64,000 nucleotides of DNA from a virus. Lineage: Duplodnaviria > Heunggongvirae > Uroviricota > Caudoviricetes. Below, in pieces: positions 80 to 24,462 of this stretch. Numbering within the stretch: position 1 is the first letter of the stretch; each line of letters begins with the position of its first letter. The stretch is taken from positions 26,514-90,513 of the IMG/VR virus record IMGVR_UViG_3300048593_000456; one strand, given 5' to 3'. The translations under genes and the position numbers were made by a program. The notes beneath the pieces were generated by a model. The model was not told the DNA's origin. It worked only from the letters and a program-made list of their open reading frames with translations, and made no database searches.

Positions 80-616
80 ATGATTCCGGGCAACTATCTA
101 TCTCGCGTGCTGTCTCTAAAAACAATGCATCCAGAAGCATCGGGTTTTTTCTCCGATGTAAACGCCCGTATTACTAGGTGCAATAATGAAGTATCTGAAT
201 TTTATAACTATCTATATAGAAAGATTAATTTTGATACAAACACTTTATCTTATAAATGTAGTACAGTAGAAGAATTAAGAAGTCTTAACGGTTTAGTTAT
301 CGATGGAAGGACGTATAATGCAGTTGGTGGATACACGCCATATAAAATTAAAAGTAAATCCTACTATTACAATCACGCATTTTTTAGTTCTTTATTAAGT
401 TATTCAAGCTTTATATATAGCTCAAGCCTAAAAACTGTAGTTAATATAAATAACTCGTCGAATTCTCATCTAGATTATGAAAATGCCGGTGTAGAATTTG
501 CACAAAAGAATTTAAACCAAGAAGTATTCGAATATACTTATCCTAATATATACAAAAATGTATATTTTCAGCACGGAATATTTACAGTAAAAACAAAAGG
601 TGCTTTTATTCAATGA
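80..616 (+). CDS. hypothetical protein
   Basis: ATG-initiated 178-aa ORF from the track. No recognisable motif. Confidence 0.4.
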   Translation: MIPGNYLSRVLSLKTMHPEASGFFSDVNARITRCNNEVSEFYNYLYRKINFDTNTLSYKCSTVEELRSLNGLVIDGRTYNAVGGYTPYKIKSKSYYYNHAFFSSLLSYSSFIYSSSLKTVVNINNSSNSHLDYENAGVEFAQKNLNQEVFEYTYPNIYKNVYFQHGIFTVKTKGAFIQ

Positions 617-1527
617 TATCAATAAAAAGCCCGACAGCATTTTCTGTTCATAGATATGGCTGGCATTATGCCATGAGCTTCTTAAAGGATTTTCATAGCC
701 AGAACGGTATACTGCTAGACGACTTTATAGAAAAAACTCACTCTTGGAATGTTGATTTTTTCACTCCATATAAACGGCCTTGGGTTGGATTTCTGCACAA
801 CCCGCATAAAATGCCAAGATGGTTTGATTACCAGCATTCACCACAATCTATTCTAGAGAGTGCCCGTTTTCAAGAGTCCTTGAGGTTCTGCCGGGGCTTG
901 ATCGTGTTATCGGATTATCTCGCGAATTGGCTCAGGCAGAAGGTTACAGTGCCCGTTATTTCATTGAAGCATCCGACTGGGCCTGCCAATCTTCTATGGA
1001 ACTATAGAAAGTATAAAAATAAACCTAAGATAGTACAGCTTGGATACTGGCTACGCAAGCTATCGCAAATATATTTACTTAAAACAGATATTGATAAATA
1101 CTGGTTGCCGTCAAATCAAAATTACTCAAAATATTTGCTAGACATAGAAACCAGAGTAAACAATATAGAAATAAAAAATAGGGATAGTGTCATTATTCCA
1201 GAACATTTGTCTAACTTGGATTATGATGAAATGCTTTCGGGCTGTGTGGCGGTTATGAATTTATACGATAGCTCTGCCAACAACGCACTTATAGAGTGTA
1301 TTATTAGAAATACCCCTGTTATAATTAATAGACATCCTGCCTCAATAGAATATCTTGGAAATAACTATCCTCTTTATTGCGATTTCTCAGAATTTTCAGC
1401 AGAAAAACTTCTCTGCCCGGCTAAAATACTTGAAACTAATGAATATCTTGCGGGCCTAAACAAAGATTATCTCAAAGGCTCCTATTTCGCAAAAACATTT
1501 TATGAAAATATTAGACCTATTCTATAA
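613..1527 (+). CDS. hypothetical protein, possible GT-B glycosyltransferase C-terminal domain
   Basis: 304-aa ORF. The C-terminal stretch DSSANNALIECIIRNTPVIINRHPASIEYLG resembles the donor-binding E-x7-E/PVI region of GT-B glycosyltransferases. Weak. Confidence 0.3.
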   Translation: MISIKSPTAFSVHRYGWHYAMSFLKDFHSQNGILLDDFIEKTHSWNVDFFTPYKRPWVGFLHNPHKMPRWFDYQHSPQSILESARFQESLRFCRGLIVLSDYLANWLRQKVTVPVISLKHPTGPANLLWNYRKYKNKPKIVQLGYWLRKLSQIYLLKTDIDKYWLPSNQNYSKYLLDIETRVNNIEIKNRDSVIIPEHLSNLDYDEMLSGCVAVMNLYDSSANNALIECIIRNTPVIINRHPASIEYLGNNYPLYCDFSEFSAEKLLCPAKILETNEYLAGLNKDYLKGSYFAKTFYENIRPIL

Positions 1528-2071
1528 AAAAAAGAGCATATATTTAACACTTCTAGACGGTAAAAAAGTAGATATACTTAACTTATCACCTAGCGATATA
1601 CATATTGTAGACATAACAATGTCTCTTTCTAAAATATGTAGATTTAACGGGCACTGTAATTATTTTTATTCAGTAGCAGAGCATTCTATGTTATGTTATT
1701 ACATGGCTTTGGGCGATGGAATCACCGATAAAGAAGCTCTAAAAGCTATATTTGCACATGATTTTAGCGAAGCTTATTGTGGAGATATAATTACTCCTAT
1801 AAAAGCTTATTTAGGAAAAAAGTTTAGTAATATAGAACAAAAAATAACTAATGCCATATCTTTAAAATATAATATAAACTTTGATAAATATAAAGATATT
1901 GTAAAATATTACGATAAAAAATCTTTAGATTTTGAAATAAATTATTATAAAGATCCTCGAAAAATTACTTACGACGGCTTAGTTTCAGCAGATCTTGAAG
2001 TTGAAGAATTTTTTAACATATTTACAAGGCTTTTCGAAGATGAAAAACATACATATAACTTGCCCAATTAA
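1502..2071 (+). CDS. HD-domain phosphohydrolase (YfbR-like 5'-deoxynucleotidase fold)
   Basis: Motifs AEHSML...FAHDFSEAYCGDI give an H...HD...D metal-binding pattern. Confidence 0.5.
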   Translation: MKILDLFYKKKSIYLTLLDGKKVDILNLSPSDIHIVDITMSLSKICRFNGHCNYFYSVAEHSMLCYYMALGDGITDKEALKAIFAHDFSEAYCGDIITPIKAYLGKKFSNIEQKITNAISLKYNINFDKYKDIVKYYDKKSLDFEINYYKDPRKITYDGLVSADLEVEEFFNIFTRLFEDEKHTYNLPN

Positions 2072-3128
2072 TAAACTTAGTTACGGCTATACATCATATT
2101 ATCTTATAAAAGAGCTTTTAAAGCTTAAGAATAATATCTTTTTTTATAATATAGGCCCCGTAGATAATGATTTAGCAAAAGACGTAGTCAATATACATTT
2201 TTTAAATAAACATGTTGGCATATTTGCAAAAAATCAACCTTACAACACCGTATCATTAAAAATATGGCACCAGAATGAAGTTCATGGAATGCCTGTTCGT
2301 GGTCATCACTACGGCTTCCCAATATTCGAACTAGATAGATTTAATGAAATAGAAAAAGCAAGCCTTAAGCTTTGCGACGAACTTATAACATGCTCTAAAT
2401 GGGGAGCTAAAGTAATAAAAGAACAGACAGGAAAAGATTGCCATGTAGTTCCGTTAGGAATAGATGATGAAATTTTTAAACCGTGCGGTCCATCTACGCT
2501 TAAAAATACTATATTTTTTAATTGCGGTAAATGGGAAATAAGAAAAGGTCACGACATATTAATAGAATGTTTTAATAAAGCATTTAATGAAAGCGATAAC
2601 GTAGAATTGTGGTTAATGTGCGACAATATATTTTTACAAGACGGCGGCAAAAGCTGGATTGATTTATGTAAAAAATCAAAATTATCTTCAAAAATTAGGC
2701 TTATACCTAGACAAAGCGATCATGCTGATGTATACAGAATTATGTCTAAGACCGATGTTGGTGTATTCCCGTCTCATGCCGAAGGCTGGAATCTAGAATT
2801 ACTAGAACTTATGGCAATAGGTAAGCACGTTATAGCGACTGATTATTCCGCACATACAGAATATTGCACCAGTGAAAATTCTTCACTACTAAATATAGAC
2901 TCTTTGGAGTCTGCATACGACGGAATATGGTTTCATAATAATGGAAGATGGGCGGAAATTAAAGACGAAACAAAAGATCAAATGATTTCATATATGCGAA
3001 TGCACCACAAGAATAAACAGGACGGACTTTTGGGTATAAATAGTAAGGGTATAGAAACAGGAAAACAGTATACTTGGGCTAATTCCGCCAAAATTCTTTC
3101 TGATTTATTGAACAATGACGATATTTAA
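2040..3128 (+). CDS. glycosyltransferase family 1 (GT-B)
   Basis: The track ORF begins with TTG at 1995. An in-frame ATG at 2040 gives MKNIHITCP.... The C-terminal motif VGVFPSHAEGWNLELLELMAIGKHVIATDY is a typical GT1/GT4 E-x7-E signature. Confidence 0.6.
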   Translation: MKNIHITCPINKLSYGYTSYYLIKELLKLKNNIFFYNIGPVDNDLAKDVVNIHFLNKHVGIFAKNQPYNTVSLKIWHQNEVHGMPVRGHHYGFPIFELDRFNEIEKASLKLCDELITCSKWGAKVIKEQTGKDCHVVPLGIDDEIFKPCGPSTLKNTIFFNCGKWEIRKGHDILIECFNKAFNESDNVELWLMCDNIFLQDGGKSWIDLCKKSKLSSKIRLIPRQSDHADVYRIMSKTDVGVFPSHAEGWNLELLELMAIGKHVIATDYSAHTEYCTSENSSLLNIDSLESAYDGIWFHNNGRWAEIKDETKDQMISYMRMHHKNKQDGLLGINSKGIETGKQYTWANSAKILSDLLNNDDI

Positions 3129-4047
3129 CACGACAAAAGAGCTTATCAAAGCTTACGAAAATGGATACAACGCAACCATCTTTGATAATAAAGAGAATGA
3201 TGATGTATTGCAACATTTAAAGTATCCAATTTTTGGCGATGCTGCACAAAACATAAAAGGTAGCGGTTTAGGTAAAATAGCTTTACCTTATAAATTAGTT
3301 AGAAAATACGATAAAAATTTTGCATCTGATGAAAACCAGCTTACAGGTGATTGTAGTTCGCACGGATGCAGAAACGCAACCACAATTTCTCTAGTTTCCG
3401 ACATAGAAGAACGTTTAGAGGCTGAGGGATATGCAGGAAGATTAGCCACAGAAGTAATATATGGCTATCGAGGACACGGCGGACAAGGAATGTCCGTTGC
3501 TCGGGCGGTAAATTTTCTTTCAGAAATAGGCGGAATAGCATTACGTCGCAAATACGGAAAATATGATCTGTCCAAATACAATCCTCAAATTGGTATAAAT
3601 TGGGGCAGAACCGGCGTTCCTAAATCAGTTATATCAGAAATAAATACAAACAAAGTTCTGACTGTTTCTTTATCCAGAGCAGTAGATGAACTACGCGATG
3701 CTATTTATAACGGATATGGGGTTGTAGTAGGAAGCAATGTCGGTTTTTCATCTAAACGCGATAAAAACGGTATATCTAATCCTAAAGGTAGTTGGAATCA
3801 TGCCATGTGCTTCGGCGGTATGGATGATACTAAAACCAGAAGTTCCGAAACGCTATTTTTAATACTAAATTCTTGGGCCGACTGGAATTCAGGCCCGAAA
3901 GCATATGATCAACCCGATGGAAGTTTTTGGATTACAGCAACTGTTGCTGATAAAATGATTAGGCAACGACAAACTTGGGTTATAGGAAATGTTAATGGTT
4001 TTCCCGCTAAATCTGTAAACTGGGGATTATTTGATGATATATTATAA
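3115..4047 (+). CDS. putative papain-like / NlpC-P60-like cysteine hydrolase
   Basis: GDCSSHGCRNA (a DCSG-like Cys motif) with a downstream WNHAM His. Weak similarity only. Confidence 0.3.
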   Translation: MTIFNTTKELIKAYENGYNATIFDNKENDDVLQHLKYPIFGDAAQNIKGSGLGKIALPYKLVRKYDKNFASDENQLTGDCSSHGCRNATTISLVSDIEERLEAEGYAGRLATEVIYGYRGHGGQGMSVARAVNFLSEIGGIALRRKYGKYDLSKYNPQIGINWGRTGVPKSVISEINTNKVLTVSLSRAVDELRDAIYNGYGVVVGSNVGFSSKRDKNGISNPKGSWNHAMCFGGMDDTKTRSSETLFLILNSWADWNSGPKAYDQPDGSFWITATVADKMIRQRQTWVIGNVNGFPAKSVNWGLFDDIL

Positions 4048-4573
4048 ATACCTACTGATATTCACACTGATATTTTTACCTTCCATATCTCTTGGAGAAG
4101 AGTCTATTTCTGTAAAAAAAAGGCGTGTAGAAATAAAAAATGTTATACAGAAACATATAGATAAAATCATGGTTTCTGAAACTGAAAAAGAAAAAGATGA
4201 AGAAACTGTTGCTCCTGATAATTCGGGAGTATGTAAAAAATGCAAGGGATTGAAGTACATAGTTCAGGGGGACGGCCACAAAACACCTTGCCCGCTTTGT
4301 ACTAATTTAGGCGATCAGATTATAGAAGAAAAAAAAGCAACTATTTATTTTTATTCTTCGGACAATTGTGATTTGTGCGAAAAATGGAAAGCCGAAGAAT
4401 TGCCGGGCCTTTTAGATTATAATGTAGTCGAAATAAACGAAACTACATCCGTCAGGAAAAAGTTTGGCAAATATCCCGCTTATGAATTAAAGATCGGTAA
4501 TTATACTGTTCAATATATAGGTTATTTAAACAAAAAAGTAGTTGGAGATATTTATGACAAATACAAAAAATGA
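4034..4573 (+). CDS. secreted thioredoxin-like CxxC protein
   Basis: Start moved to the ATG at 4034. N-terminal hydrophobic signal MIYYKYLLIFTLIFLPSISLG. CxxC pairs CKKC, CPLC and CDLCEKW within YFYSSDNCDLCEKWKAEE. Confidence 0.4.
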   Translation: MIYYKYLLIFTLIFLPSISLGEESISVKKRRVEIKNVIQKHIDKIMVSETEKEKDEETVAPDNSGVCKKCKGLKYIVQGDGHKTPCPLCTNLGDQIIEEKKATIYFYSSDNCDLCEKWKAEELPGLLDYNVVEINETTSVRKKFGKYPAYELKIGNYTVQYIGYLNKKVVGDIYDKYKK

Positions 4574-4895
4574 TACGCTTCAAGATTTAGCAGTATCTAT
4601 CGGGGCTTCTTATTCGTCAGGTAAGGATCTTCCTACGTTAGACCCACTGATCATATTAACAGTCGGAAAAATAATTTTCGATGTAATAATCATGATTAAA
4701 AAGTGTTATGACACTAGAAATACCGCTACTTTATCAGAAAGATTAAAGTATGTCGGCCCGGTACAAAAATCTATTTTATGGCTTGTTGTTAAACGCCATA
4801 CAGCAAGAACACATTTAGATTCAAGATTGTTAATGAATCTAATTTTATCTCAGTCTTTAACAGAAGAACAATTAATTAATCTATTAGGAGATTAA
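4554..4895 (+). CDS. hypothetical protein
   Basis: In-frame ATG with a GGAG ribosome-binding site (RBS). The track start was an upstream TTG. Confidence 0.35.
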   Translation: MTNTKNDTLQDLAVSIGASYSSGKDLPTLDPLIILTVGKIIFDVIIMIKKCYDTRNTATLSERLKYVGPVQKSILWLVVKRHTARTHLDSRLLMNLILSQSLTEEQLINLLGD

Positions 4896-8094: not shown

Positions 8095-8119
8095 TAGATT
8101 TTTCAAATTTTTTAATTAA

Positions 8120-8141
8120 GAGGGGGGCTAAAACCCCCCTC
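8120..8141 (+). terminator. GC-rich stem-loop (putative intrinsic terminator)
   Basis: GAGGGGGG-CTAAAA-CCCCCCTC, an 8-bp G/C stem, immediately downstream of the 7411..8094 CDS. Confidence 0.5.
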
Positions 8142-8157
8142 ATTTGGGGGAGTCATC

Positions 8158-8835: not shown

Positions 8836-9041
8836 TGAACAAAGATAAAGAGTTAAAATTGTTAGAGGCTGTTACTGCTGCTAGAAACGCTAATAAATCT
8901 AAAGGTATTGATTTTGCTTGGGATACTGTTGATATGTCATTGGATTGGGACGATCTTTTGGCTTTTGTTGAAAAGTATGTAGACAAAGAAGATGAAATAG
9001 TATTAATTTCTCCTAATCCGCTTGCTGAGGCTGAACTTTAA
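8835..9041 (+). CDS. hypothetical protein
   Basis: 68-aa track ORF with ATG start. Confidence 0.35.
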   Translation: MNKDKELKLLEAVTAARNANKSKGIDFAWDTVDMSLDWDDLLAFVEKYVDKEDEIVLISPNPLAEAEL

Positions 9042-9217
9042 AAGTAAATGGGTATAGTAGATAATTTACTCTCTCGGGCACTAGATCAGTTAGGACTCAC
9101 AAAAGAACAGGTGAGTAAAGTTAAGTCTATTATTGACTTAGTTGATGTGAAAGAATATACTGATCATGTTGAAGTTACTATTAATCTTAAAAATATAAAA
9201 ATTGAAATAAAAAAATA

Positions 9218-12202
9218 ATGACATCTGAAAAAAAGAATTTTGGCAAGAAGTTTCTGTCGGACTTGAAACTTTATAGTGACTATTTTAAATGGAATGAAAA
9301 ACTTAACCGCTACGAAAATTGGAACGAAGCTTGTAGCGATATTGTTGATGGACATAAGAAGAAATATGCTAATGTTGACCTTTCTCGGGAGCTAGATTTA
9401 GTTTTAGAGCTAATGAAATCAAAAACTATCCTTGCTTCACAAAGAAATCTACAGTTTAGACATGACCAGATAATGAGACATAATATGCGTATGTACAATT
9501 GTACGACGCTTCATTTTGTTAGTCCTAGAAATTTTGGAGATGTTCTTTATTTAGGTCTGTGTGGCTGCGGTGTTGGCTCATCTCTTTTACTTCCATTTAT
9601 TAATCAGTTACCGGAATTACAAAAGAGAGAAAAAGGTACTAAGACATATATTATACCCGACAGTATTGAGGGCTGGAAAAATGCAATCGATGTCTTGATG
9701 TCTTCTTATTTTACTGAAAGACAGGTTTTCCCCGAATACTCTGGTTATAATATTAGATTTGATTATTCGCAAATACGTGAAGCTGGTTCATTTATTAATG
9801 GCGGGTTTAAGGCTCCCGGCCCCAACGGTCTAAAAAATTCTCTCGAATCAATAGAGAAGTTGTTGGACCACTGGATACTCACACAAGGCCCGAGGCTGCG
9901 TCCTATAGCCGTCTTTGATATATTGTGCCATTCATCCGATGCTGTTCTTAGCGGCGGCGTTAGACGCTCTGCATTGTCTATGATTGTCGATCCAAACGAT
10001 AAAGAAATGATGCTTGCTAAAACAGGCAACTGGAGAACAGAAAATCCCCAGCGAGGTAGATCTAATAATTCTGTATTAATTCACAGACAGTATTGCGATG
10101 AAAATGAAATATCCCAAAGAAAGTTTTTTGACGAAATCGTAGGAATTAACGATGGAGCAAATGATTTAGGATTCGTATTCTGTAATACTTGGTTCGATGT
10201 ATTCAATCCATGTTTTACAATAGATACAAAAGTTTTAACAACTAATGGTTGGATGACTTTTGGCGAAATGATGGAAAAACAAGATACGGAAGATATTTAT
10301 ATAGTTCAAGATAAAAGAGTTAAAGGTAAAGCAGAAGGAATCCATGAATCTTGGGATACAGATCTTTCAAATACTGGTGTTGAATATAATAAAATTGGTA
10401 AAGTTGCAAAAACAGGTGAGAACGTAGATATTTATGAACTTGTTTTATCCTGTGGTAGAAAAGTTAAAGCAACGGGAAATCATAAATTCTCTACTAAACA
10501 AGGCATGAAAGAACTTTTAAGCCTTCAAATTGGCGATGATGTATTAGTTACATGCGATGAAAATATAACAACTAAAAAAGATGAAGATTTTCATGATGGA
10601 TTTTTATCTGGAATGTGTGTAGGAGACGGATACATTACCGAAGATGATGCCGGAATAAGCGTATGGGAAGATCTAGATGATGAAAATGAAGATTTGGAAT
10701 TTACTAAATCTAGCATAGAACAAATATTCAAAGAAAGCATGTCCAGAAGAATAGAATCTAAAGAATTATATTCTGATGGTAAAAAACCAATATCTACAGA
10801 TATTAAATTTAAGTTACAAAGACAAGTTGGAAATTCTGCTAAATATACACTCGCTTCTACAGGATTTAAGAAATACTTAGATATACTCGGAGTAAGAAAA
10901 GATAATTTATCTTGGCTTTATAAGAAAAGTAAAAACTTTAAGGCTGGATTTGTTGCCGGAATGTTTTTTACAGACGGGCATGTAGATTATACAGAATCAT
11001 CCAAGAGCATATCCTTAAGAATAACTCAATCAAATAAGGAGTTTTTAAACGATCTTTCGTTAATATTGCAAGAAATCGGATTTTTGGCATCTGTCTACGA
11101 TCTACTCCCGGAAGAAACAAGAAAGCTTCCTAATTCACAAAGAGTCTTACAGGATTATAATTGCAAGGCATCATATAGATTATGTATAAATGGATATAAG
11201 CAATCTTGTAAATTTATAGAAGATATTGCATTTTTACATAAAGCAAAAATAAATAAAACCAACGACATACTTAACAATCTCAAGGGATATAAAGATATAT
11301 TAAGGCATAAAAAAGTTGTAAGCATTAACTATTTAGGTAAAGAAGATGTTTACTGCTTAGAAGAAAATAACAACAGAACATTGATAGCAAACGGTATCAC
11401 GGCAGCTAGATGTTTTGAAATCGGCTTCACTCCCGTAGACACTCATGATAAACTTCAAGATATATCTTATGAACAAGTAGAAGAATGGGTCAGACAAAAT
11501 ATTCATCTATTCGGAATACAAGGCTGTAATCTAAACGAAATAAATGCCGAAAAATGCGTGCCCGAAAACGGTAAAACACTTGAAGAATCATTTCTTCGTG
11601 CTTGTGAAGGCGCAGCCATACTTGGTACTTTACAGGCTGGATATACTGATTTTCCTTTTCTATCTCCTAGAACCGAAAAATTGGTTAGACGAGAAGCTTT
11701 GCTTGGGGTTAGTATTACTGGCTGGATGAATAATCCCGCACTATTTAACGAAGAGTTGTTACGTAAAGGTGCTGCCGTTGTTGTGGAAACAAATAAAAAG
11801 GTAGCTGCTAAGATAGGTATTAATCAAGCCGCTAGAACTACATGTGTGAAACCGAGCGGAAATGCGTGTACAAAATTCGATACTATTATAAAAACAAACA
11901 TTGGTGACTTAACATTATTAGAAATTTTTAAATACTGCTTAGACGATCCCAATTTTGATACAGAAACCATTAATTTTACAGATACTTCATTTAATTTGAA
12001 AAAACCTTTAAAAGTTTATGATAAAAATAATAATGAGCAAAGTATAGAATTGTTATACATAAACGGTTTATCTGAAACATATGAAGTAGAGTTTGAAGAC
12101 GGTCAAGTTTATTCTTTTACTGAAAATCATAAATTATTAACTGATAAAGGATGGAAACTTGTTAAAGACCTAAAAGAAAATGATGAAATAATAAGCTTTT
12201 AG
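9218..12202 (+). CDS. ribonucleotide reductase large subunit, N-terminal fragment, with one complete LAGLIDADG intein and the N-half of a split intein
   Basis: Extein motifs: FNP-C(F)EIG reconstituting NPCxEI, GCNLNEIN, TTCVKPSGN. Intein 1 is about 10211..11410 and begins CFTIDTKVL. It has block B TGNHKF and two LAGLIDADG motifs, FLSGMCVGDGYI and FVAGMFFTDGHVDY. From about 11867 a second intein N-half begins, CTKFDTII...TENHKLLTDKGWKLV. The ORF then hits a stop. Confidence 0.7.
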   Translation: MTSEKKNFGKKFLSDLKLYSDYFKWNEKLNRYENWNEACSDIVDGHKKKYANVDLSRELDLVLELMKSKTILASQRNLQFRHDQIMRHNMRMYNCTTLHFVSPRNFGDVLYLGLCGCGVGSSLLLPFINQLPELQKREKGTKTYIIPDSIEGWKNAIDVLMSSYFTERQVFPEYSGYNIRFDYSQIREAGSFINGGFKAPGPNGLKNSLESIEKLLDHWILTQGPRLRPIAVFDILCHSSDAVLSGGVRRSALSMIVDPNDKEMMLAKTGNWRTENPQRGRSNNSVLIHRQYCDENEISQRKFFDEIVGINDGANDLGFVFCNTWFDVFNPCFTIDTKVLTTNGWMTFGEMMEKQDTEDIYIVQDKRVKGKAEGIHESWDTDLSNTGVEYNKIGKVAKTGENVDIYELVLSCGRKVKATGNHKFSTKQGMKELLSLQIGDDVLVTCDENITTKKDEDFHDGFLSGMCVGDGYITEDDAGISVWEDLDDENEDLEFTKSSIEQIFKESMSRRIESKELYSDGKKPISTDIKFKLQRQVGNSAKYTLASTGFKKYLDILGVRKDNLSWLYKKSKNFKAGFVAGMFFTDGHVDYTESSKSISLRITQSNKEFLNDLSLILQEIGFLASVYDLLPEETRKLPNSQRVLQDYNCKASYRLCINGYKQSCKFIEDIAFLHKAKINKTNDILNNLKGYKDILRHKKVVSINYLGKEDVYCLEENNNRTLIANGITAARCFEIGFTPVDTHDKLQDISYEQVEEWVRQNIHLFGIQGCNLNEINAEKCVPENGKTLEESFLRACEGAAILGTLQAGYTDFPFLSPRTEKLVRREALLGVSITGWMNNPALFNEELLRKGAAVVVETNKKVAAKIGINQAARTTCVKPSGNACTKFDTIIKTNIGDLTLLEIFKYCLDDPNFDTETINFTDTSFNLKKPLKVYDKNNNEQSIELLYINGLSETYEVEFEDGQVYSFTENHKLLTDKGWKLVKDLKENDEIISF

Positions 12203-12244
12203 GGTATATCATATTAAGCCTAGTAAAATAAAGGAGGGTTTAAC

Positions 12245-13063
12245 ATGCCATACGTATATTTTTTAAAAAATAAAACAACAGGACTGAAATATATAGGAGT
12301 TAAATATTCAAAAGGGTGTGACTCGAAGCTTTTTTGGTTGACATATTTCACATCCTCAAAACAAGTAAAACAACTCATAAAACTTTTTGGAAAAGAAGAT
12401 TTTTCATTCAAAATTTTAAAAGAATTTGAAAACAAATGTAGTGCATTAGATTATGAAAATAAATTATTAAAAATTGCTACTAAAAAAGATGATTATTTAA
12501 ACATGCATACAAATTTTCATGGGTTATTAACTCATGAACAAATCGAGGAAAATCATAAGAAACAAGCTATATCAGCTAGTATTACTGGTTTATTATGTTT
12601 AAAAAATAAAACTGGCATTTTTTCTTTATCCAAAAAAGAAAGGATTAAGGCATGTAGTAATGGCGGAATTAATGCAGCAAGAGTGAATAGATTATTGAAT
12701 AGAGCAATATTTAATAAAGAAATAAGAAGTATTCAGCACAAAACTCTTAAATTGAAAAAAATAAGTGCGTTTTATAATCCTGACACCAGAAAAGAAATAT
12801 CTAGAAAGGGCGGACTAAACGGCAGATTTAGTAAAAAATATTTTGAAAAAAACAATATGCCGGAAGAACAAAGAATAGAAGAACAAAGAAGAAGAGGTAA
12901 AATTGGCGGTAAAAAAAATTCTGGATTTATTTGGTATAACGATGGGTTAAAATCGTATAAATATACTAAAAAACAACAAAAAGAATTAAATTTCAATGAT
13001 TTCTTAAAAGAAAACCCAAGCTTTAAAAAAGGAAGAACAAGTGCGAATAAAAAAAATAACTAA
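12245..13063 (+). CDS. GIY-YIG homing endonuclease (free-standing, between the split-intein halves)
   Basis: N-terminal YVYFLKNKTTGLKYIGVKYS (GIY...YIG). Strong RBS AAGGAGGG. Basic C-terminal region. Confidence 0.75.
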   Translation: MPYVYFLKNKTTGLKYIGVKYSKGCDSKLFWLTYFTSSKQVKQLIKLFGKEDFSFKILKEFENKCSALDYENKLLKIATKKDDYLNMHTNFHGLLTHEQIEENHKKQAISASITGLLCLKNKTGIFSLSKKERIKACSNGGINAARVNRLLNRAIFNKEIRSIQHKTLKLKKISAFYNPDTRKEISRKGGLNGRFSKKYFEKNNMPEEQRIEEQRRRGKIGGKKNSGFIWYNDGLKSYKYTKKQQKELNFNDFLKENPSFKKGRTSANKKNN

Positions 13064-14009
13064 GTCGTTAAAACTATCGATTACTGGCGATATTCAGGTT
13101 GCAAATACAAACAGTTATCAATTAAAAAATGGGGCAGTTTCTCATAACTCTGTAGTTTTAATGACCGAGTCCGGAATTCACCCTGCTCATTCTTTAATGT
13201 ATTTTAGAGTTATGCAGTTAAACAAAAATTCCGATACTGCAAAATTTTTAGAACAAGAAATGCCGTTTTTACTGGAAGAAAGTGTATGGTCTAAAAATAA
13301 TACAGATCACGTAGTATTCGTTCCTATAATAAATCCACCAGATGGTTTGTTTAAAAAGGATATGAAGGGCGTAAAACACTTAGAGTTAATCAAGCTGGTT
13401 CAAAACAACTGGATTGTACCCGGAACTAATAGAGATATTGGTATATGCGATCTTACTAATCATAATTGTAGCTGCACGGTAATCATAGACGATAGCAAAG
13501 CAGTGACAAATTATATATGGAATAACAGAAAAGATTTCACTGCTGTATCATTTATATCCGACTATGGAGATAAAGATTTTAACCAAGCACCATTTACAAG
13601 CGTAATGAACTTTGAAGAAATTGCATCAGTGTATGGTGAAGGATCTATGTTCGCATCGGGCCTTATTGTTGACGGGCTACATTATTTTAATAATAATTTA
13701 TGGAATGCCTGCGACTGTCTTTTGGATAAAAATATTCCTATCGCCGGAACTAGAGAGCAAGTATTACTCAAAAAAGACTGGCTGAGACGGGCAAAGCAGT
13801 TCGCTAAGAATTACTTCAAAAATGATATCAAAAAAATGATATATTGCCTAAAAGATATTCACCTGTTCCACAAGTGGAAATCAATAAACAGGCAAATGAA
13901 AGAAATATCACTGGAAACCGTTTTAAATAAACCGTCCTACAAAGATGTTTCTGATTACGCTGCCGTGGCTTGTTCTGGCGGATCTTGCGAAGTTACAAGG
14001 CTTAATTAA
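13041..14009 (+). CDS. ribonucleotide reductase C-terminal fragment preceded by split-intein C-half
   Basis: GTG start with an AAGGAAG RBS. The first 36 aa MRIKKITKSLKLSITGDIQVANTNSYQLKNGAVSHN end in the canonical intein block-G NG..vHN. The +1 Ser starts the extein SVVLMTESG.... The protein ends with the redox Cys pair ACSGGSCEV, as in NrdA CESGAC. Confidence 0.65.
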   Translation: MRIKKITKSLKLSITGDIQVANTNSYQLKNGAVSHNSVVLMTESGIHPAHSLMYFRVMQLNKNSDTAKFLEQEMPFLLEESVWSKNNTDHVVFVPIINPPDGLFKKDMKGVKHLELIKLVQNNWIVPGTNRDIGICDLTNHNCSCTVIIDDSKAVTNYIWNNRKDFTAVSFISDYGDKDFNQAPFTSVMNFEEIASVYGEGSMFASGLIVDGLHYFNNNLWNACDCLLDKNIPIAGTREQVLLKKDWLRRAKQFAKNYFKNDIKKMIYCLKDIHLFHKWKSINRQMKEISLETVLNKPSYKDVSDYAAVACSGGSCEVTRLN

Positions 14010-15160
14010 TGAATAGAATATTCTATGCGTGTCAGGGGTGTTTATTTACACGCCTTGACGAAAACGAAACATCCTACCTCAATGGAGTACAATCTATTGG
14101 GGTAGATAATTCTTGGGGCACAACTACAATATTTGACTGCGGTAGATCCCAACCTAAAGATGTTTTGTATAACAGCTTTAATATAAGTTTTAACTTAGAA
14201 AGAGTTGTGGGCAATTACTCAGATCCATCTATAAGTCCTAAAGAATGCGTCGGGCCTTTTTTGCATCATATATTTTTTAAGGATAATACTAAGCCTATAA
14301 ATAGTAAAGATGCTTTTTTTCTAAAAAATTTTGGCACGGGAATTACCGGAAATACATCTAAAGACATAAAAGAGTTCGATCTATCGATCTTATACCAAAC
14401 TGACGACGGGCCAATTTTACAAAGCAGCAGACAATTACATAAATCAGTTTACAAAAGATGTTTATTAAATTCAATAAGTTATTCTATAACTAAAGAAAAA
14501 GTCCTAGAAAGTCTTTCGTTTCAGTCTAAATCTGTAGAAAATTTTGAAAATCAAGGTAGTTACCAAAAAACTCAAGTTACATTAGGTGAGCAATATTCCG
14601 GAAATAAAATACGGACCCTAATACGCCCGCGAGATATAGACAGAACAAATACCGTCTTGCCGGAAATACTGAATTCTATAACGGATACCAACACTTTTTT
14701 TGACGGAATAGAAGTTTTAGGAATCACGGAAATATCGACAGAGGCTACAATAGAATACCAAGAGATATTAGACGAAGGTGTTTGGAAAGGAAGTCCCGTT
14801 AGCAATAATTTATGGACAACGTTGCATGTTCCTATTCCCACCAGAACATCTATAAAATTTACTGCAAGGAAAGGTGCTAATATCAATTTTTTAAATACGC
14901 CAGAATTTACTAGCGGAACTGTTAAAAAATATAAAATAAGATTAGCATTTAAAACCAGAAATTATACAAATACAAGCGATGATCTATTTATAATAGATTG
15001 TGGAGAGAAAAATGTCATACAGTCATTTAATATATCTGGCGGATCTACCTCTGGAGATTTACTTGAATACGAAATGACATTTAGTGGTTTTAACGATTTC
15101 GTAACGTATTTTACACCGGCAAATAGCCCAACACTCTTACTTTTTACAGAAAGATACTGA
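14009..15160 (+). CDS. hypothetical protein
   Basis: 383-aa track ORF with ATG start. No recognisable motif. Confidence 0.4.
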   Translation: MNRIFYACQGCLFTRLDENETSYLNGVQSIGVDNSWGTTTIFDCGRSQPKDVLYNSFNISFNLERVVGNYSDPSISPKECVGPFLHHIFFKDNTKPINSKDAFFLKNFGTGITGNTSKDIKEFDLSILYQTDDGPILQSSRQLHKSVYKRCLLNSISYSITKEKVLESLSFQSKSVENFENQGSYQKTQVTLGEQYSGNKIRTLIRPRDIDRTNTVLPEILNSITDTNTFFDGIEVLGITEISTEATIEYQEILDEGVWKGSPVSNNLWTTLHVPIPTRTSIKFTARKGANINFLNTPEFTSGTVKKYKIRLAFKTRNYTNTSDDLFIIDCGEKNVIQSFNISGGSTSGDLLEYEMTFSGFNDFVTYFTPANSPTLLLFTERY

Positions 15161-15846: not shown

Positions 15847-15856
15847 TGAGGATAAA

Positions 15857-17581: not shown

Positions 17582-17972
17582 TGCCGCACAATATATAGCG
17601 GAAATTGTTTGCCTACGTAATTTTAAAAAGAAGCAGATGGGCGATCCATCATTCAAGTTTTGGAATAAAGAAGAAAAAAGTATCTACCAAGGACAAGTTG
17701 TAACAGCAAATAAACTCATTAATGAGTATGGAGTTGAAGCTGTTTTAGATTATATAAATTTTAATAAAGGTATATACTCTCTCGGGCATTTTAATCCCAT
17801 AAAATTTATAAAAGACGGGATATCTAAAACAAAATGGATTCTAGACAAAAAGAGTTCCGTTTCTAAGAAAAATATAGAAGAAGAAAAACAACAGGAAGTT
17901 CCGCAGACAAATTTCGAAATTCCCAAACCTAAACAAAAAACAACATTAATTGATAAACTAAGGAACACATGA
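17520..17972 (+). CDS. hypothetical protein (start uncertain; an alternative in-frame ATG lies near 17637)
   Basis: Overlaps the previous ORF by about 60 nt in another frame. Confidence 0.3.
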   Translation: MDKKRTEKKPYCSPTTGEPCSAAQYIAEIVCLRNFKKKQMGDPSFKFWNKEEKSIYQGQVVTANKLINEYGVEAVLDYINFNKGIYSLGHFNPIKFIKDGISKTKWILDKKSSVSKKNIEEEKQQEVPQTNFEIPKPKQKTTLIDKLRNT

Positions 17973-20002
17973 GCGATAAAAATCTGGATGCCATTTTAAA
18001 GGAAATAAAAAAGAAGCATGGTAATATTATCATTAAGGGTAATGAATTACTTAATCAAAGAAAAGATCATAAAACAATTTCTGTTAGTCCTTCAATAGAT
18101 CTTGCTTTAAAAGGTGGTGTAAGAGAGGGGACTTGGTTAATGTTGTCGGGAGCACCTAAATCGGGCAAGGCACAGCCTATGGATGCTATTATCTACACTC
18201 CTTCTGGACCTACAGTGTTTGAATCTCTTTCAGTTGGGGATGAAATTTGTGGTATTGATGGAAAGCATTGTATAGTCAGAGCTATATACCCCCAAGGAGT
18301 AAGAAAGGTTTATAAGGTTCTTTTTAGTGACGGTACTAACGTAGAGTGTGACGGGCATCATTTGTGGCCGGTATCTGTCAATAGAGTAAATTCGTCTGTT
18401 TTACTTAAGACTACAGAGGAGCTACTATCTAAAGTAAGCTATCCCGACCGCGATAAATGGAAAATAAAATATAGCCACTGTGATTTTAATACTAAGGAAA
18501 CTGTAATAGATCCTTTTGTACTAGGTGTTATATTAGCAGATGGATACGTAGATGCAAATCAGCGTCTTTACATAAAAAATGCAAAACCATACATACTTGA
18601 AGAATTTAATACGAAGATATCTCAATATAATTGCATATTAGATTCTACTGGGGATAGTGGTTATCAAGGCATTATATTAAGCACTGAGAAAAATAATTAC
18701 TTAAACTATTTTATACAAAATTACATGAAATCTTCTCCGGGTCAAAAAGTTATAACACGTAGCTCTTTTAAGGTTCCGGATTTATATAAATACAACTCGT
18801 TTTATAATAGAAACGAACTACTTCGGGGATTTTTAGGATCTAACGGTTATCTTCATCCTTCTGGATACTATGAGGTCGAATCAGCAAACACCCAATTACT
18901 GCGTGACATAGCCGAAGTATCCAGATCATTAGGCTATCCGACTTATATTAACGACAGAAAAGACAGTAGGCAAAGACTAACAATTAATAACTGCGGGGTT
19001 ATGTTACATGCATTAAAAGAAAATAATTCGCCATGCCCGGTAGAAAATTATAAAACCATAAATCTTATTACGGAAGTTGGCGATAAATACTGTCAGTGCA
19101 TAGAAATTGATCAGGACGGTTTATATTTAACTAATGGATTTAATGTTACCCATAATACCACAACTGCTATGCAGCTAGCATTTAATTGTCAGAAAGAAGG
19201 CCGTCCGGTTATCTATATTAATGCCGAGGGTAGATTAAGCGAAATGAATTTTGATGTTCGCGGGCTTGATCCTGAAAAGATGCAGATTATTACGGCAGAA
19301 GATAAACCATTATCCGCAGAAATATTTTTAGATACTGCATTACAACTTATATCAGCAAAAGAAAATGTAGGTGCTTTATGTATTATCGATTCGGTATCTG
19401 CTTTAATACCATCTAGAGAACTAGAAGAAGATGTAACAGGCATGGCTAGACCGGGATTGCCCAAGCTATTATCTAATTTTGTTAAGAAAGCCGGTCAAAT
19501 TGTCCCTAATAACAAGATTACAATGTGCATGATTACGCACCTTATTACTAATACTAGCGGCTATGGACCAAGTAAAATGGCCGACTCTGGTGTAAAGATA
19601 CAGTATCAGGCAGATACTAGAATGGAGGTAAAATCTATTTCACCGTGGGAGCACAAAGAAAAACAGGTCGGGCAAGCCGTAAACTGGAAAATATATTATA
19701 GCTCTAAGGGTGCTACAGGCGTTGAGTGCCAATCATGGATTCGTTACGGCGAAGGTATTGACAGTGCTCAAGAACTGCTTATACTTGGCGAGGAACTGTC
19801 GTTAATCTCCAAGGCCGGTGCGTGGTATACACTAGACTTCCTAAAGTCAAAGCCCGAGGAATTCAAAAAGATTTTGCCCGATGGAGACATTGACAAAGCA
19901 TGTAAATTTCAAGGGCAAGAAAAAGTCTATAACTTTATTAATGATAACCCCGCTGTACTCGAACTTTTACAGAATGATATTTTCGAGATGCTTGCATCAT
20001 GA
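17969..20002 (+). CDS. RecA/UvsX-family recombinase interrupted by a class-3-like LAGLIDADG intein
   Basis: The extein reconstitutes SGAPKSGK|TTTAMQLAFNCQKEGRPVIYINAEG, matching RecA GPESSGKTTLTL...CAFIDAEH. The C-terminal RecA core is present: IIDSVSALIP...MITHLITNTSGYG. The intein is about 18170..19156. It starts with Ala and has block B DGHHLW, LAGLIDADG motifs LGVILADGYV and LRGFLGSNGY, block F KYCQC and block G NGFNVTHN|T. Confidence 0.8.
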   Translation: MSDKNLDAILKEIKKKHGNIIIKGNELLNQRKDHKTISVSPSIDLALKGGVREGTWLMLSGAPKSGKAQPMDAIIYTPSGPTVFESLSVGDEICGIDGKHCIVRAIYPQGVRKVYKVLFSDGTNVECDGHHLWPVSVNRVNSSVLLKTTEELLSKVSYPDRDKWKIKYSHCDFNTKETVIDPFVLGVILADGYVDANQRLYIKNAKPYILEEFNTKISQYNCILDSTGDSGYQGIILSTEKNNYLNYFIQNYMKSSPGQKVITRSSFKVPDLYKYNSFYNRNELLRGFLGSNGYLHPSGYYEVESANTQLLRDIAEVSRSLGYPTYINDRKDSRQRLTINNCGVMLHALKENNSPCPVENYKTINLITEVGDKYCQCIEIDQDGLYLTNGFNVTHNTTTAMQLAFNCQKEGRPVIYINAEGRLSEMNFDVRGLDPEKMQIITAEDKPLSAEIFLDTALQLISAKENVGALCIIDSVSALIPSRELEEDVTGMARPGLPKLLSNFVKKAGQIVPNNKITMCMITHLITNTSGYGPSKMADSGVKIQYQADTRMEVKSISPWEHKEKQVGQAVNWKIYYSSKGATGVECQSWIRYGEGIDSAQELLILGEELSLISKAGAWYTLDFLKSKPEEFKKILPDGDIDKACKFQGQEKVYNFINDNPAVLELLQNDIFEMLAS

Positions 20003-22559: not shown

Positions 22560-22648
22560 GCCCCGGAAGTTATTGCGGCGGAACACGCCATTACGCGCTC
22601 TTAGGGGCGAGCGGGTGTCGGGCGAGGGTTCGAATCCCTCTCGGGGCT
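22560..22648 (+). ncRNA. 88-nt tRNA-like RNA (non-canonical; not a standard tRNA)
   Basis: 7-bp acceptor stem GCCCCGG/TCGGGGC. Canonical T-arm GAGGG-TTCGAAT-CCCTC. Internally, AA sits at positions 8-9 and there are two hairpins: GGCG-GAACA-CGCC and CGCTC-TTAGGGGC-GAGCG (an 8-nt loop). It lies about 130 nt downstream of the promoter above. Confidence 0.35.
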
Positions 22649-22674
22649 TTTGGGACGGCGCAATGGAGGTTTAA

Positions 22675-22761
22675 ATGACAGAAACAGGCTTGTTGGTCTA
22701 TGGTTTATTTCTGGTGTTTATTACCATCTGGGTTTGGTTCGAAGGTGATAATCCAAGTTAA
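22675..22761 (+). CDS. small hydrophobic peptide (28 aa)
   Basis: A GGAGG RBS sits 7 nt upstream of the ATG. Sequence MTETGLLVYGLFLVFITIWVWFEGDNPS. Below the track's size cut-off. Confidence 0.3.
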   Translation: MTETGLLVYGLFLVFITIWVWFEGDNPS

Positions 22762-22781
22762 AAAAATATTTTGAGGTAATT

Positions 22782-23066
22782 ATGGCACTTAAAAAAACTG
22801 TTGTAGAAATCAAGCACGATGAAGGTTATGGAGATATGCTATTGCTGCATATTAATAATTCGCTTCGTGGTAAAGACATGATCGCTGAGCGTATCATTGA
22901 TACGGAAAGAATGGAGACTGATATCGCTAAGGCTAAAGAACGACTAAGAAAGACTAGAAAAGGTGTTGATATGGGGGTTATCCACTTTGACAGTCATTTG
23001 AACTATGCACAAGGCGTAGTTGATGGCTTAGAATCAGCATACGATATTTTACATATAGAACTATAG
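22782..23066 (+). CDS. hypothetical protein
   Basis: 94-aa track ORF with ATG start. Confidence 0.4.
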   Translation: MALKKTVVEIKHDEGYGDMLLLHINNSLRGKDMIAERIIDTERMETDIAKAKERLRKTRKGVDMGVIHFDSHLNYAQGVVDGLESAYDILHIEL

Positions 23067-23141
23067 ACATAAACGGCGGAGAGGCGGTATCTTGCTATGG
23101 CAAGGTATCGTCTCGTTGAAACTGGATTGTGTCTATAATAT

Positions 23142-23213
<72 letters not shown>

Positions 23214-23311
23214 TTGACTCGTCCATTCCTAGCACGAGATATATACCACGAAGCTAGCGTCGTGACATTAGGATAACTTCCGTCAATCTATCGGAAGCAA
23301 AATATCATAGA

Positions 23312-23382
23312 GAAGTAGTAGTTCAGGGGTAGAACGTCGCCGGTTCAGGCGAATGACGGTGGTTCGAATCCATCCTGCTTCA
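23312..23382 (+). tRNA. tRNA, anticodon unresolved
   Basis: Acceptor GAAGTAG/CTGCTTC. D-arm GTTC-AGGGGTA-GAAC. T-arm GGTGG-TTCGAAT-CCATC. As read, the anticodon stem TCGCC/GGCGA encloses only 6 nt, GGTTCA. It may be a degenerate tRNA or I may have misread a base. Confidence 0.45.
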
Positions 23383-23396
23383 ATTCACCCATTAAA

Positions 23397-23420
23397 CCGA
23401 TGCCGGAATTCCGGCATCGG
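23397..23420 (+). repeat. perfect 24-nt palindrome between two tRNAs (possible processing or terminator hairpin)
   Basis: CCGATGCCGG-AATT-CCGGCATCGG. Confidence 0.5.
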
Positions 23421-23436
23421 CTTTAAGGGATGTATC

Positions 23437-23522
23437 GGTAAAGTAGCACGTAATTGGCAGCGTAGGGGTCTGTAACACCCTCACCCTAACAGGTCTTGTA
23501 GGTTCAAGTCCTACCTTTACCA
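23437..23522 (+). tRNA. tRNA-Tyr (GUA), type II with long variable arm
   Basis: Acceptor GGTAAAG/CTTTACC. Anticodon arm GGGGT-CTGTAAC-ACCCT. T-arm GTAGG-TTCAAGT-CCTAC. 86 nt. Confidence 0.7.
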
Positions 23523-23569
23523 CTTAATTAATATAAAAATTTTATCTGGAGTTTAAAGGGGAAAAATAA

Positions 23570-23908
23570 ATGAGCCTAAACAAAAGCAATTATATTGAAT
23601 ATATTCTTCCAGCAATGGCATTAGGGGCACTTATTTTTCTCGGTGTTACATTTTATAACGAGAAAAAAACAGAGAAATTTGAAATACTTCCTCAATTAAA
23701 AGAGCATCGTGTTAGATTGGTGCGGCCCGATGGAGCCGTAGATAAAATAATTAAGATTTATAAGTATGAAGATTCTACTTTAATTTTTAGTTCTAGTTCG
23801 GGAAACCTTTGTGTGTATGGCTACGATAATGATCGTGATAGATATGCAAACACATACATTGCCCCTATCGGCTGGAATCTAGAACCAGTAAACGAAAACG
23901 AAGAGTGA
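23570..23908 (+). CDS. membrane-anchored hypothetical protein
   Basis: N-terminal TM segment ILPAMALGALIFLGVTF. Confidence 0.4.
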   Translation: MSLNKSNYIEYILPAMALGALIFLGVTFYNEKKTEKFEILPQLKEHRVRLVRPDGAVDKIIKIYKYEDSTLIFSSSSGNLCVYGYDNDRDRYANTYIAPIGWNLEPVNENEE

Positions 23909-23943
23909 TATTTTTTATTTCTTTTTTTATAAATAGGAATCAT

Positions 23944-24126
23944 ATGAAATTTTTTAATGCACTACAGATCGTGACTTTATTTTCAGCATGGCCAATGCTA
24001 ATAAACTGGCTTGGTAATAACCCTTTTAAGGGTGCAGAAATTTTATACTATGTTGCATGGGTTGTTTATGCAGTTGGATTTTTCTTTCTTACGGTTTCAG
24101 TAGCAGAAGCGATAGAAAAGACTTAA
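23944..24126 (+). CDS. small membrane protein
   Basis: ATG with an AGGA RBS. Two hydrophobic helices. Confidence 0.35.
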   Translation: MKFFNALQIVTLFSAWPMLINWLGNNPFKGAEILYYVAWVVYAVGFFFLTVSVAEAIEKT

Positions 24127-24128
24127 TC

Positions 24129-24332
24129 ATGAATCAAGATTTATCCCAACACTTTAAATACATCCAAGATAAAATTAGCGACGAAGGTTTTGATTATTGT
24201 TTTAGGTACTATTCAACTTTTGGTCATCTTGAAGATGAAAAATTTCATTCTTTAAGAGAGTCTTATATAAAAATTGCTAATGAGCTTGAAGAATATATCA
24301 ATGAGAAATCCGCCGATCTTTTGTTTGAATGA
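24129..24332 (+). CDS. hypothetical protein
   Basis: In-frame ATG giving MNQDLSQHF.... Confidence 0.35.
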   Translation: MNQDLSQHFKYIQDKISDEGFDYCFRYYSTFGHLEDEKFHSLRESYIKIANELEEYINEKSADLLFE

Positions 24333-24333
24333 C

Positions 24334-24361
24334 TTGACAGCCCGTAAAAGCGTGCTATAAT
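24334..24361 (+). promoter_or_regulatory. consensus sigma70-type promoter upstream of tRNA-Met
   Basis: TTGACA-GCCCGTAAAAGCGTGC (16 nt)-TATAAT. Confidence 0.55.
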
Positions 24362-24391
24362 AGTCGCATATTCGCATTTGTTTCTACATTC

Positions 24392-24462
24392 TGCGGGCTA
24401 GAGTAAAGGCAACTCGTCGGTCTCATAAGCCGAAGCTACTGGTTCGATTCCAGTGCCCGCAA
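24392..24462 (+). tRNA. tRNA-Met (CAU); could be initiator, elongator or lysidine-modified Ile2
   Basis: Acceptor TGCGGGC/GCCCGCA. D-arm GAGT-AAAGGCA-ACTC. Anticodon arm TCGGT-CTCATAA-GCCGA. T-arm ACTGG-TTCGATT-CCAGT. Confidence 0.75.

Follow-up and report, generated by a model that had tools for sequence, protein, structure and literature searches.

The closest described relatives of the locus reported here are the fractured genes of Dassa, London, Stoddard, and Pietrokovski (2009), in which split inteins are combined with a free-standing GIY-YIG or Vsr-like endonuclease gene; the examples include NrdJ-1, NrdA-2, gp41-1, and IMPDH-1, and both class I and class II ribonucleotide reductases (RNRs) are among the hosts (PMC2677866). 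Here we describe a locus of this type in a 64,000-nucleotide stretch of a phage genome (Caudoviricetes; IMG/VR record IMGVR_UViG_3300048593_000456, positions 26,514 to 90,513; hereafter the window). Its class II RNR gene appears to be fractured by a Hint intein that is itself split by a free-standing GIY-YIG homing-endonuclease gene, such that the two RNR fragments would be joined by protein trans-splicing and the insert would behave as a homing cassette. On the sequence and modeling evidence presented below, we give this reading a probability of about 0.8.

The locus shares with the 2009 set the order, on one strand, of an N-extein with the N-terminal intein half (IntN), an endonuclease open reading frame (ORF), and the C-terminal intein half (IntC) with a C-extein. 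The two also agree in the RNR host, including the class II NrdJ; in the use of GIY-YIG, one of the two endonuclease classes; in the break at the endonuclease-insertion point of the intein; in the negative charge of IntN and the positive charge of IntC; in overlapping reading frames; and in phage origin. The endonuclease genes of the 2009 set also have a hairpin in the 5' untranslated region, often with the T4-type late-promoter motif TATAAATA, for which the window has a weak candidate. They differ in the insertion point, as the NrdA and NrdJ sites of 2009 lie at, or one residue after, the thiyl-radical Cys, whereas the window site lies about 150 residues downstream, and in the intein family, which is closer to the DnaE type than to NrdJ-1. 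The window also differs in that it can be compared with an empty-site allele and with a diverged genome carrying a near-identical cassette.

With the Npu and Ssp DnaE inteins the window intein shares the split position, the 36-aa IntC, the class 1 residues (Cys1, TxxH, and terminal Asn), and the pairing of an acidic N-half with a basic C-half, and Npu DnaE is its best sequence match among solved structures. In contrast, the cyanobacterial DnaE halves are encoded far apart without an endonuclease between them, and the host protein is a different one; DnaE has Cys as the residue that follows the intein (+1), where the window has Ser, and the Npu intein ends ...IASN, with Ser at the penultimate position that is His in the window. 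The nrdA-mobE locus of Aeromonas phage Aeh1 (Friedrich et al. 2007; Crona et al. 2010, PMC3045599) is likewise an RNR large subunit split by a free-standing homing-endonuclease gene, with endonuclease translation under a hairpin that masks its ribosome-binding site, of which the window has only a weak counterpart. However, Aeh1 has no intein, its endonuclease is of the HNH type, and the fragments remain separate chains, whereas the flanking intein halves of the window are predicted to rejoin the protein. The window enzyme resembles the Seg endonucleases of T4 in its N-terminal catalytic domain, which scores above the Pfam cut-off, in its free-standing gene with a ribosome-binding site of its own, and in its large-phage setting with rIIA, RNA ligase, PhoH, and tRNAs. 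The seg genes are intergenic, whereas the window gene lies inside an intein inside a gene, so that its insertion would be phenotypically masked by protein splicing.

Junctions of the cassette in the RNR gene

The N-terminal RNR fragment (ORF A) matches the Pfam families RNR-II_ins_dom, Intein_splicing, and LAGLIDADG_3 and aligns with the RNR of Rhizobium phage RHph_I1_18 up to ...TTCVKPSGNA. At this point the uninterrupted RHph_I1_18 protein reads ...AARTTCVKPSGNA/SVLLMTASGIH... (a slash marks the insertion point throughout), and ORF A reads ...AARTTCVKPSGNA and then CTKFDTII.... The C-terminal fragment (ORF C; 13041(GTG)..14009, 322 aa) opens with 36 residues that end NGAVSHN and continues with SVVLMTESGIH...; its residue 37 is the exact start of homology to uninterrupted RNRs, and its C-terminus carries CSGGSC. 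The sequence KPSGNA/SV... is uninterrupted in RHph_I1_18 and in about 77 IMG/VR loci; a scan of IMG/VR with ORF C as the query returned 80 loci. At the level of sequence alignment, the junction is exact against the uninterrupted homologues and against the empty-site contig L004 described below. The original prediction had placed the cassette at 11867-13148, immediately before the conserved Ser of the RNR, with a 36-aa C-half ending NGAVSHN/S and a C-terminal CSGGSC pair. All of this is borne out, the coordinates to the base, and the predicted N-half is also present, with a length of 111 aa in place of about 112.

The cassette is 1282 bp long, which is no multiple of three, and ORF A and ORF C therefore lie in different frames with no single ORF reading through them. 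The spliced product would read ...KPSGNA-SVVLMTE..., with PSGNASVVLMTESGIHPAHSLMYFR as the predicted junction peptide. The GTG codon of ORF C sits 23 nt inside the 3' end of the endonuclease gene (ORF B), and 6 nt upstream of it is the Shine-Dalgarno (SD) sequence AAGGAAG, which falls in the codons of the conserved KKGR at the C-terminus of the endonuclease. In two related loci (L084 and L086), IntC has an ATG at the position homologous to the window GTG, overlapping the endonuclease stop codon as ATGA; the window endonuclease extends eight codons beyond that stop position.

Evidence for a split intein

The two halves contain the block A, B, F, and G motifs of a class 1 intein: Cys1 after ...KPSGNA, SFTENHKLL, and GDIQV...NGAVSHN/S. 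When fused, the halves of the window match the Pfam family Intein_splicing at E = 1.4e-5, and those of the related locus L005 reach 37.8 bits, above the curated cut-off of 35.8. Searched as a single sequence against the PDB sequences, the fused window halves recover the Npu DnaE intein at E = 0.007. A profile of 20 distinct loci with the insertion at the same RNR site, on which the counts of invariant and +1 residues given here also rest, yields 33 PDB matches at E<=0.01, every one of them an intein (33/33); the best is Npu DnaE at 1.9e-9, and NrdJ-1 (8ubs) is reached only at 1.4e-4. The expected alignment of the halves with known inteins, with blocks A, B, F, and G present, is thus recovered. 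The Npu DnaE alignment covers both halves, its break coincides with the natural DnaE split site, which is the canonical endonuclease-insertion point, and the IntC of the window (36 aa) is identical in length and register to that of Npu DnaE.

The predicted structure agrees with the profile. An AlphaFold2 (AF2) model of IntN plus IntC from a 39-row alignment has a mean local confidence (pLDDT) of 96 and a predicted template-modeling score (pTM) of 0.90; it replaced a single-sequence model of the fused halves that was unusable (pLDDT 35). Each of the top 50 Foldseek matches of the alignment-based model in the PDB is an intein or an intein-like domain at a probability of 1.00, with template-modeling (TM) scores of 0.65-0.80 and one exception, a domain-swapped entry at 0.41. 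The Foldseek matches also show that the PDB contains another phage split intein, that of Aeromonas phage Aes123 PolB1. Across the 20 loci, C1, T85 and H88 (block B TxxH), D128 (F:4), H146, and N147 are invariant, and the +1 residue is Ser or Thr in every case. The net charge is -10 for IntN and +5 for IntC, the polarity described for the DnaE, NrdJ-1, and NrdA-2 pairs (PMC2677866). Sequence profile and predicted fold together support the assignment of both halves to one Hint/intein domain.

Empty and filled alleles

Two contigs bear on the mobility of the cassette. L004, a 168.8-kb contig, has 98-99% DNA identity to positions 5867-11865 and 13149-20006 of the window with nothing between, and its RNR is a single ORF of 1169 aa. 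As the alignment closes without gap sequence, the inserted block is exactly 11867..13148. The second contig, L003, is 89% identical to the window overall, yet its cassette is 99.5% identical (7 mismatches in 1282 bp), whereas its flanks diverge by 10-17% in 150-bp windows. Synonymous divergence (dS) between the window and L003 is 0.00-0.03 for the parts of the cassette (IntN, endonuclease, and IntC), 0.24 for the contiguous intein of ORF A (intein 1) and extein 2, 0.68 for extein 1, and 1.17 for the C-extein. The cassette, near-identical in a genome that has otherwise diverged, has therefore been transferred recently between genomes as one unit.

The Ala codon that abuts the insertion is GCG in both filled alleles and GCT in the empty L004, and seven single-nucleotide polymorphisms (SNPs) private to the window fall within 11690-11830, just upstream of the cassette. 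The codon and the SNP patch are suggestive of co-conversion. A candidate endonuclease target on the L004-type empty site is ...AAACCGAGCGGAAATGCT/TCTGTAGTTTTAATG..., with GTGAAACCGAGCGGAAATGCTTCTGTAGTTTTAATGACC as the L004 substrate sequence. Taken at the sequence level, these alleles are good natural evidence of ongoing mobility, and the cassette is apparently still mobile.

The endonuclease gene and its leader

The separate GIY-YIG ORF predicted at 12245..13063 has been corroborated by profile search: ORF B scores 32.8 bits against the Pfam family SegE_GIY-YIG (PF19835; cut-off 25) and 16.9 against the generic PF01541, below its cut-off of 22.6, and it also matches a PHROG homing-endonuclease family. 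It has its own SD sequence, AAGGAGG, at 12231-12237. Its 19 homologues in a set of 5.8 billion proteins share invariant YVY (3-5; YxY), YIG (16-18; YxG), E71, and N86, and the C-terminal motif GGxKNxGFxWxNDGxKSYKYT is invariant or nearly so among them. The C-terminal half, with KGG-like repeats and the WYNDG...KSYKYT motif, matches no Pfam family at E<=0.1. Wherever the context can be read, the homologues, down to 38% identity, lie between an RNR fragment that ends in IntN and one that begins with IntC.

The spacer between the IntN stop codon and the endonuclease ATG is 42 nt long and can fold into a weak hairpin with an 8-bp stem that includes two G-U pairs and covers part of the SD sequence. 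Equivalent hairpins in 12 related loci are strong (z -2.5 to -9.2) and have the SD sequence or the AUG in the 3' arm; their arm sequences vary from locus to locus, and several of the loops or 5' arms contain TATAAATA. These features match the combination of a hairpin and a late promoter reported for fractured genes by Dassa et al. (2009) and demonstrated for mobE by Gibb and Edgell (PMC2677866). By analogy with these precedents, the endonuclease would be translated late and the two RNR fragments would be translated independently. The cassette has no terminator-like site, and consensus scans for promoters and terminators were uninformative.

Two further observations concern the endonuclease. 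The motif TATAAATA occurs at 28 sites in the window, where 13.6 +/- 3.7 would be expected, and 19 of the 28 are on the coding strand. One copy (12956..12963), in the KSYKYT codons of the endonuclease gene, precedes the IntC start by 78 nt and could provide the RNR C-fragment with a late transcript of its own. Elsewhere, in P0029, an RNR N-fragment of 1164 aa, IntN reads on into a GIY-YIG endonuclease without a stop codon; this could be an in-frame IntN-endonuclease fusion or an artefact of sequencing or assembly.

Table 1. Features of the fractured RNR locus (positions in the window)
Feature	Position	Strand	Length	Details
ORF A, class II RNR N-terminal fragment	9218..12202	+	994 aa	extein 1, contiguous intein 1, extein 2, IntN, TAG
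Intein 1, contiguous LAGLIDADG intein in ORF A	10211..11410	+	400 aa	insertion at NP/C
Mobile cassette	11867..13148	+	1282 bp	IntN, spacer, GIY-YIG gene, IntC
IntN, intein N-half	11867..12202	+	111 aa	coding 11867..12199, TAG at 12200; block A CTKFDTIIKT, block B SFTENHKLLT
Weak hairpin in the endonuclease 5' untranslated region	12214..12243	+		arms UUAAGCCU and GGGUUUAA; overlaps SD, ends 1 nt before ATG
ORF B, free-standing SegE-type GIY-YIG homing-endonuclease gene	12245..13063	+	272 aa	
SD sequence and IntC	13029..13148	+	36 aa (IntC)	SD AAGGAAG (13029-13035); GTG start at 13041; (M)RIKKITKSLKLSITGDIQVANTNSYQLKNGAVSHN
RNR C-extein	13149..14009	+		+1 Ser onward (SVVLMTESGIH...) to ...ACSGGSCEVTRLN; homology to uninterrupted RNRs

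Related loci and selection

The order IntN, endonuclease gene, IntC recurs in about 20 separate loci of IMG/VR and of metagenomes; their class II RNRs belong to diverged lineages and are all interrupted at one and the same point (KPSGNA/SV, KPSG/TVSQL, and KPAG/T). An exhaustive phmmer search of 1.84 billion 50%-identity representatives with the single fused sequence gave 466 matches at E<=1e-3. Among the best 150 of these, 108 proteins have an IntN-like segment as their end; another 29 matches are contiguous mini-inteins, several of which lie at KPSG/ or at the homologous class I site MPSE/TS. The occurrence of split inteins and contiguous mini-inteins at the same site is the picture expected if a free-standing endonuclease had invaded a mini-intein.

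Searching with IntN by tblastn, we also detected related IntN halves, with 32-38% identity, in two cultured phages, Klebsiella phage phiKp_21 (LC768485.1) and Salmonella phage S16 (NC_020416.1). In phiKp_21 (1057..4769), nrdA is split as ...MPGE/TSSQ... at the homologous class I site, and the order is nrdA-IntN, an HNH-like ORF, and an IntC reading MKIVKIEK...GIVSHN/T. In S16 (1814..4540), uvsW is split over gp114, gp114.1, and gp115. Both loci share the three-ORF order of the window; they differ from it in the host, which is a class I RNR in phiKp_21 and the UvsW helicase in S16, and in the middle ORF, which is HNH-like in the former and encodes an unclassified protein in the latter. In the records the pieces bear no labels other than nrdA, DNA helicase, and hypothetical protein. 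The earlier suggestion that the arrangement is rarely seen in isolated phages is not supported, and with these two phages the architecture extends beyond metagenomes.

Several loci have apparently lost parts of the endonuclease. L132 (IMGVR_UViG_3300008255_001543, about 3639..4185) has a 544-bp cassette in which the endonuclease is reduced to a 23-aa remnant and the IntN and IntC are intact, about 120 bp apart; in L113 and L114, the endonuclease ORFs are truncated. Judged from their sequences, these three are decay stages of the cassette. All three parts of the window cassette are under purifying selection: against L084, nonsynonymous divergence (dN) and dS are 0.18 and 1.2 for IntN (dN/dS about 0.15), 0.20 and 1.7 for the endonuclease (about 0.12), and 0.14 and 0.86 for IntC (about 0.16). 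The exteins have a dN/dS of 0.04-0.1 between the window and L003.

A different kind of interruption was seen in Pseudaeromonas phage KLEP7 (OM654377.1), in which the homologous RNR (176..2610) is annotated as two coding sequences. They break at NPC, the thiyl-radical site, and are 176 bp apart; no intein signal is present, and the interruption could be a small intron or another form of gene in pieces.

The contiguous intein of ORF A

Intein 1 is inserted such that its +1 residue is the thiyl-radical Cys of the RNR, the intein-less relatives reading FNPCFEIG at this point. Its C-terminus, ...LIANGITAAR/C (...NRTLIANGITAAR/C), has Ala-Arg in place of the penultimate His and terminal Asn, whereas the canonical inteins at the same NP/C site in L008 and L015 end ...VHN/C. 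Other boundaries and frames of intein 1, such as an end at ...IAN or shifted frames, were rejected on inspection of the sequence, as they offer no nucleophile or contain stop codons. The Ala-Arg ending is carried by the inteins of the window, L003, L004, L005, L084, L135, and P0170; it is kept in L084 at 64% intein identity, in L135 at 45%, and in P0170, and a mini-intein derivative in L005 ends IVVAR/C. The protein homologue search with intein 1 gave 2 matches, to which the IMG/VR scan added the divergent Ala-Arg intein of L135. The dN/dS of intein 1 is about 0.055.

The functional intein C-termini reviewed in 2014 comprise only Asn, Gln, Asp, and Glu, and in the literature on non-Asn termini we found nothing beyond these four (PMC4031507). 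For the RNR to become active, the split intein must splice in trans and intein 1 in cis; were intein 1 unable to do so, the RNR would be dead irrespective of the split intein. For the Ala-Arg family as a whole, either the RNRs are non-functional, against which the selection data argue, or splicing is completed by an undescribed route. Given the strict conservation of Ala-Arg, the strong purifying selection on both the exteins and intein 1, and the intact ORFs, it is conceivable, though not likely, that intein 1 resolves the branched intermediate without cyclisation of Asn, Gln, Asp, or Glu; the route could, speculatively, be lactam formation by the Arg side chain or a wholly different cleavage.

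Other features of the window

The window is a segment of a phage genome in which the large ORFs all lie on the + strand and the GC content is 30-41%. Its genes include those for rIIA, RNA ligase, PhoH, NAMPT, and DnaB as well as five tRNA genes. The latter are seen as a cluster of tRNA-like genes at 22560..24462, for one of which (23312..23382) ARAGORN returns 'tRNA-???' with a two-base anticodon loop call. When the locus was compared by Megablast with 50,697 phage records, nothing matched, and the relatives of rIIA found by tblastn are all below 45% identity. No cultured phage is closely related to the window, whose proteins are found on metagenomic contigs. A third intein of 329 aa (18170..19156) with a LAGLIDADG/Hom_end domain is present in a RecA/UvsX-like recombinase (17969..20002), where it interrupts the Walker A motif (GAPKSGK/T); its Ala1, block-B Trp, F:4 Cys, and Thr-His-Asn end form the class 3 (WCT) signature.

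Discussion

The organization of the locus can be read as follows. The cassette would sit in the conserved KPSG(NA)/S/T loop of the RNR, the intein being split at its endonuclease-insertion point, and the RNR would be made as two polypeptides, ORF A ending in IntN and ORF C beginning with IntC, the latter translated from the GTG codon with its own SD sequence inside the 3' end of the endonuclease gene. The acidic IntN and the basic IntC may then pair into one intein fold, in which Cys1, the block-B Thr and His, the block-F Asp, the His-Asn pair, and the +1 Ser would perform standard class 1 splicing in trans. We infer this activity from the conserved catalytic residues and from the purifying selection on both halves. 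Translation of the endonuclease would begin at a separate start codon, which a 5' hairpin would mask in the relatives and, weakly, in the window, as in Aeh1 mobE; the enzyme presumably cuts intein-less RNR alleles at co-infection, whereupon repair would copy in the whole cassette. For the enzyme itself, activity, target, and timing of expression are likewise what we infer.

Several observations weigh against this reading. Inteins most often have His at position F:13 of block F (PMC4031507), as do 18 of the 20 loci (NTHSY), but the window has Asn there (NTNSY). The canonical catalytic Arg of GIY-YIG enzymes (I-TevI R27) could not be placed confidently in the 19 homologues of ORF B, the nearest column having K, R, or Q. 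The leader hairpin of the window is not significant against shuffled sequences (z -1.1 to -1.4), and the proposal of hairpin regulation hence rests on the relatives. Similarly, the SNP patch upstream of the cassette is no denser than some other patches of the alignment with L004, because of which co-conversion is only suggestive. Finally, intein 1, which lacks a terminal Asn, lies in the same ORF. As to the block-F substitution, the Asn is IntC residue 24 (13110..13112) and is shared with L003; it could slow the Asn-cyclisation step.

Some of these points could equally be taken as signs of a dead gene, in which the cassette, the Asn-less intein 1, or both have inactivated the RNR, host dNTP synthesis is used, and the halves are relics: the Ala-Arg end of intein 1 falls outside the reviewed termini, the common block-F His is gone from the IntC of the window, and the hairpin is degraded relative to that of L084. 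Yet the ORFs are intact in all the carriers of the cassette or of the Ala-Arg intein listed above, the low dN/dS of the exteins is that of a constrained protein, purifying selection also acts on both intein halves, on the endonuclease, and on intein 1, and the catalytic residues are invariant over the 20 loci. We regard a dead gene as unlikely and retain it because of intein 1. The precedent of Aeh1, whose NrdA functions as two chains around a homing-endonuclease gene (PMC2677866, PMC3045599), raises the alternative that the intein halves serve as association domains only and the RNR works as two non-covalent chains without a new peptide bond, to which the lack of a computational demonstration of that bond also lends weight. 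Under such an arrangement, however, roughly 150 extra residues would stay in the conserved KPSG/S/T loop, and the residues needed only for the chemistry (Cys1, TxxH, the terminal HN, and the +1 Ser or Thr) would not be expected to be invariant if selection acted on binding alone. We therefore consider it a slightly weaker contender than the dead gene.

A join at the RNA level, with 11867..13148 as a group I or II intron bearing an endonuclease ORF or as a segment bypassed in translation to give one continuous RNR, was also entertained. GIY-YIG genes are frequent in phage group I introns, and RNR genes are hot-spots for introns. Nevertheless, a scan of 9000-14500 on both strands against Rfam 15 gave no match at E<=1, the sequence inside both boundaries codes for intein blocks in frame with the exteins and has a dN/dS well below 1, and the homology to split and contiguous mini-inteins reaches the boundaries themselves. 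The intron interpretation of the cassette was dropped on the grounds of the empty Rfam scan and of the coding, constrained boundary sequences, and an RNA-level join is very improbable. On the whole, the original interpretation of a fractured gene whose two polypeptides are joined by protein trans-splicing is supported.

The architecture proposed here is already known from the work of 2009, inclusive of GIY-YIG and RNR cases, and is not a new kind of system. What is new is the RNR insertion site for fractured genes, the size of the intein family, and the empty/filled polymorphism. Our claim for the split intein is a modest one, namely, that it and its endonuclease may be a currently homing unit at a site not described for fractured genes in the 2009 paper. 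For annotation, the finding means that the cultured phage records of phiKp_21 and S16 hold the same architecture under hypothetical-protein labels. The loci also make up a large family of natural split inteins of class 1, in which IntN has about 110 aa and begins with Cys1, IntC has about 36 aa, and the +1 residue is Ser or Thr; since its junction context is unlike those of NrdJ-1 and gp41-1, the family could be screened for orthogonal protein-ligation tools. The one item of the locus with possible mechanistic importance is the Ala-Arg-terminated intein 1, whose chemistry, if the proposal is true, would represent a mechanism new to protein splicing, within the same fractured gene. More generally, the "gene-breaking" model of 2009 is supported by population-level data, namely, alleles with and without the cassette and its occurrence in a diverged genome, which show the free-standing endonuclease and the split intein traveling as one unit, and the family also displays, in L113, L114, and L132, the later stages that this model predicts.

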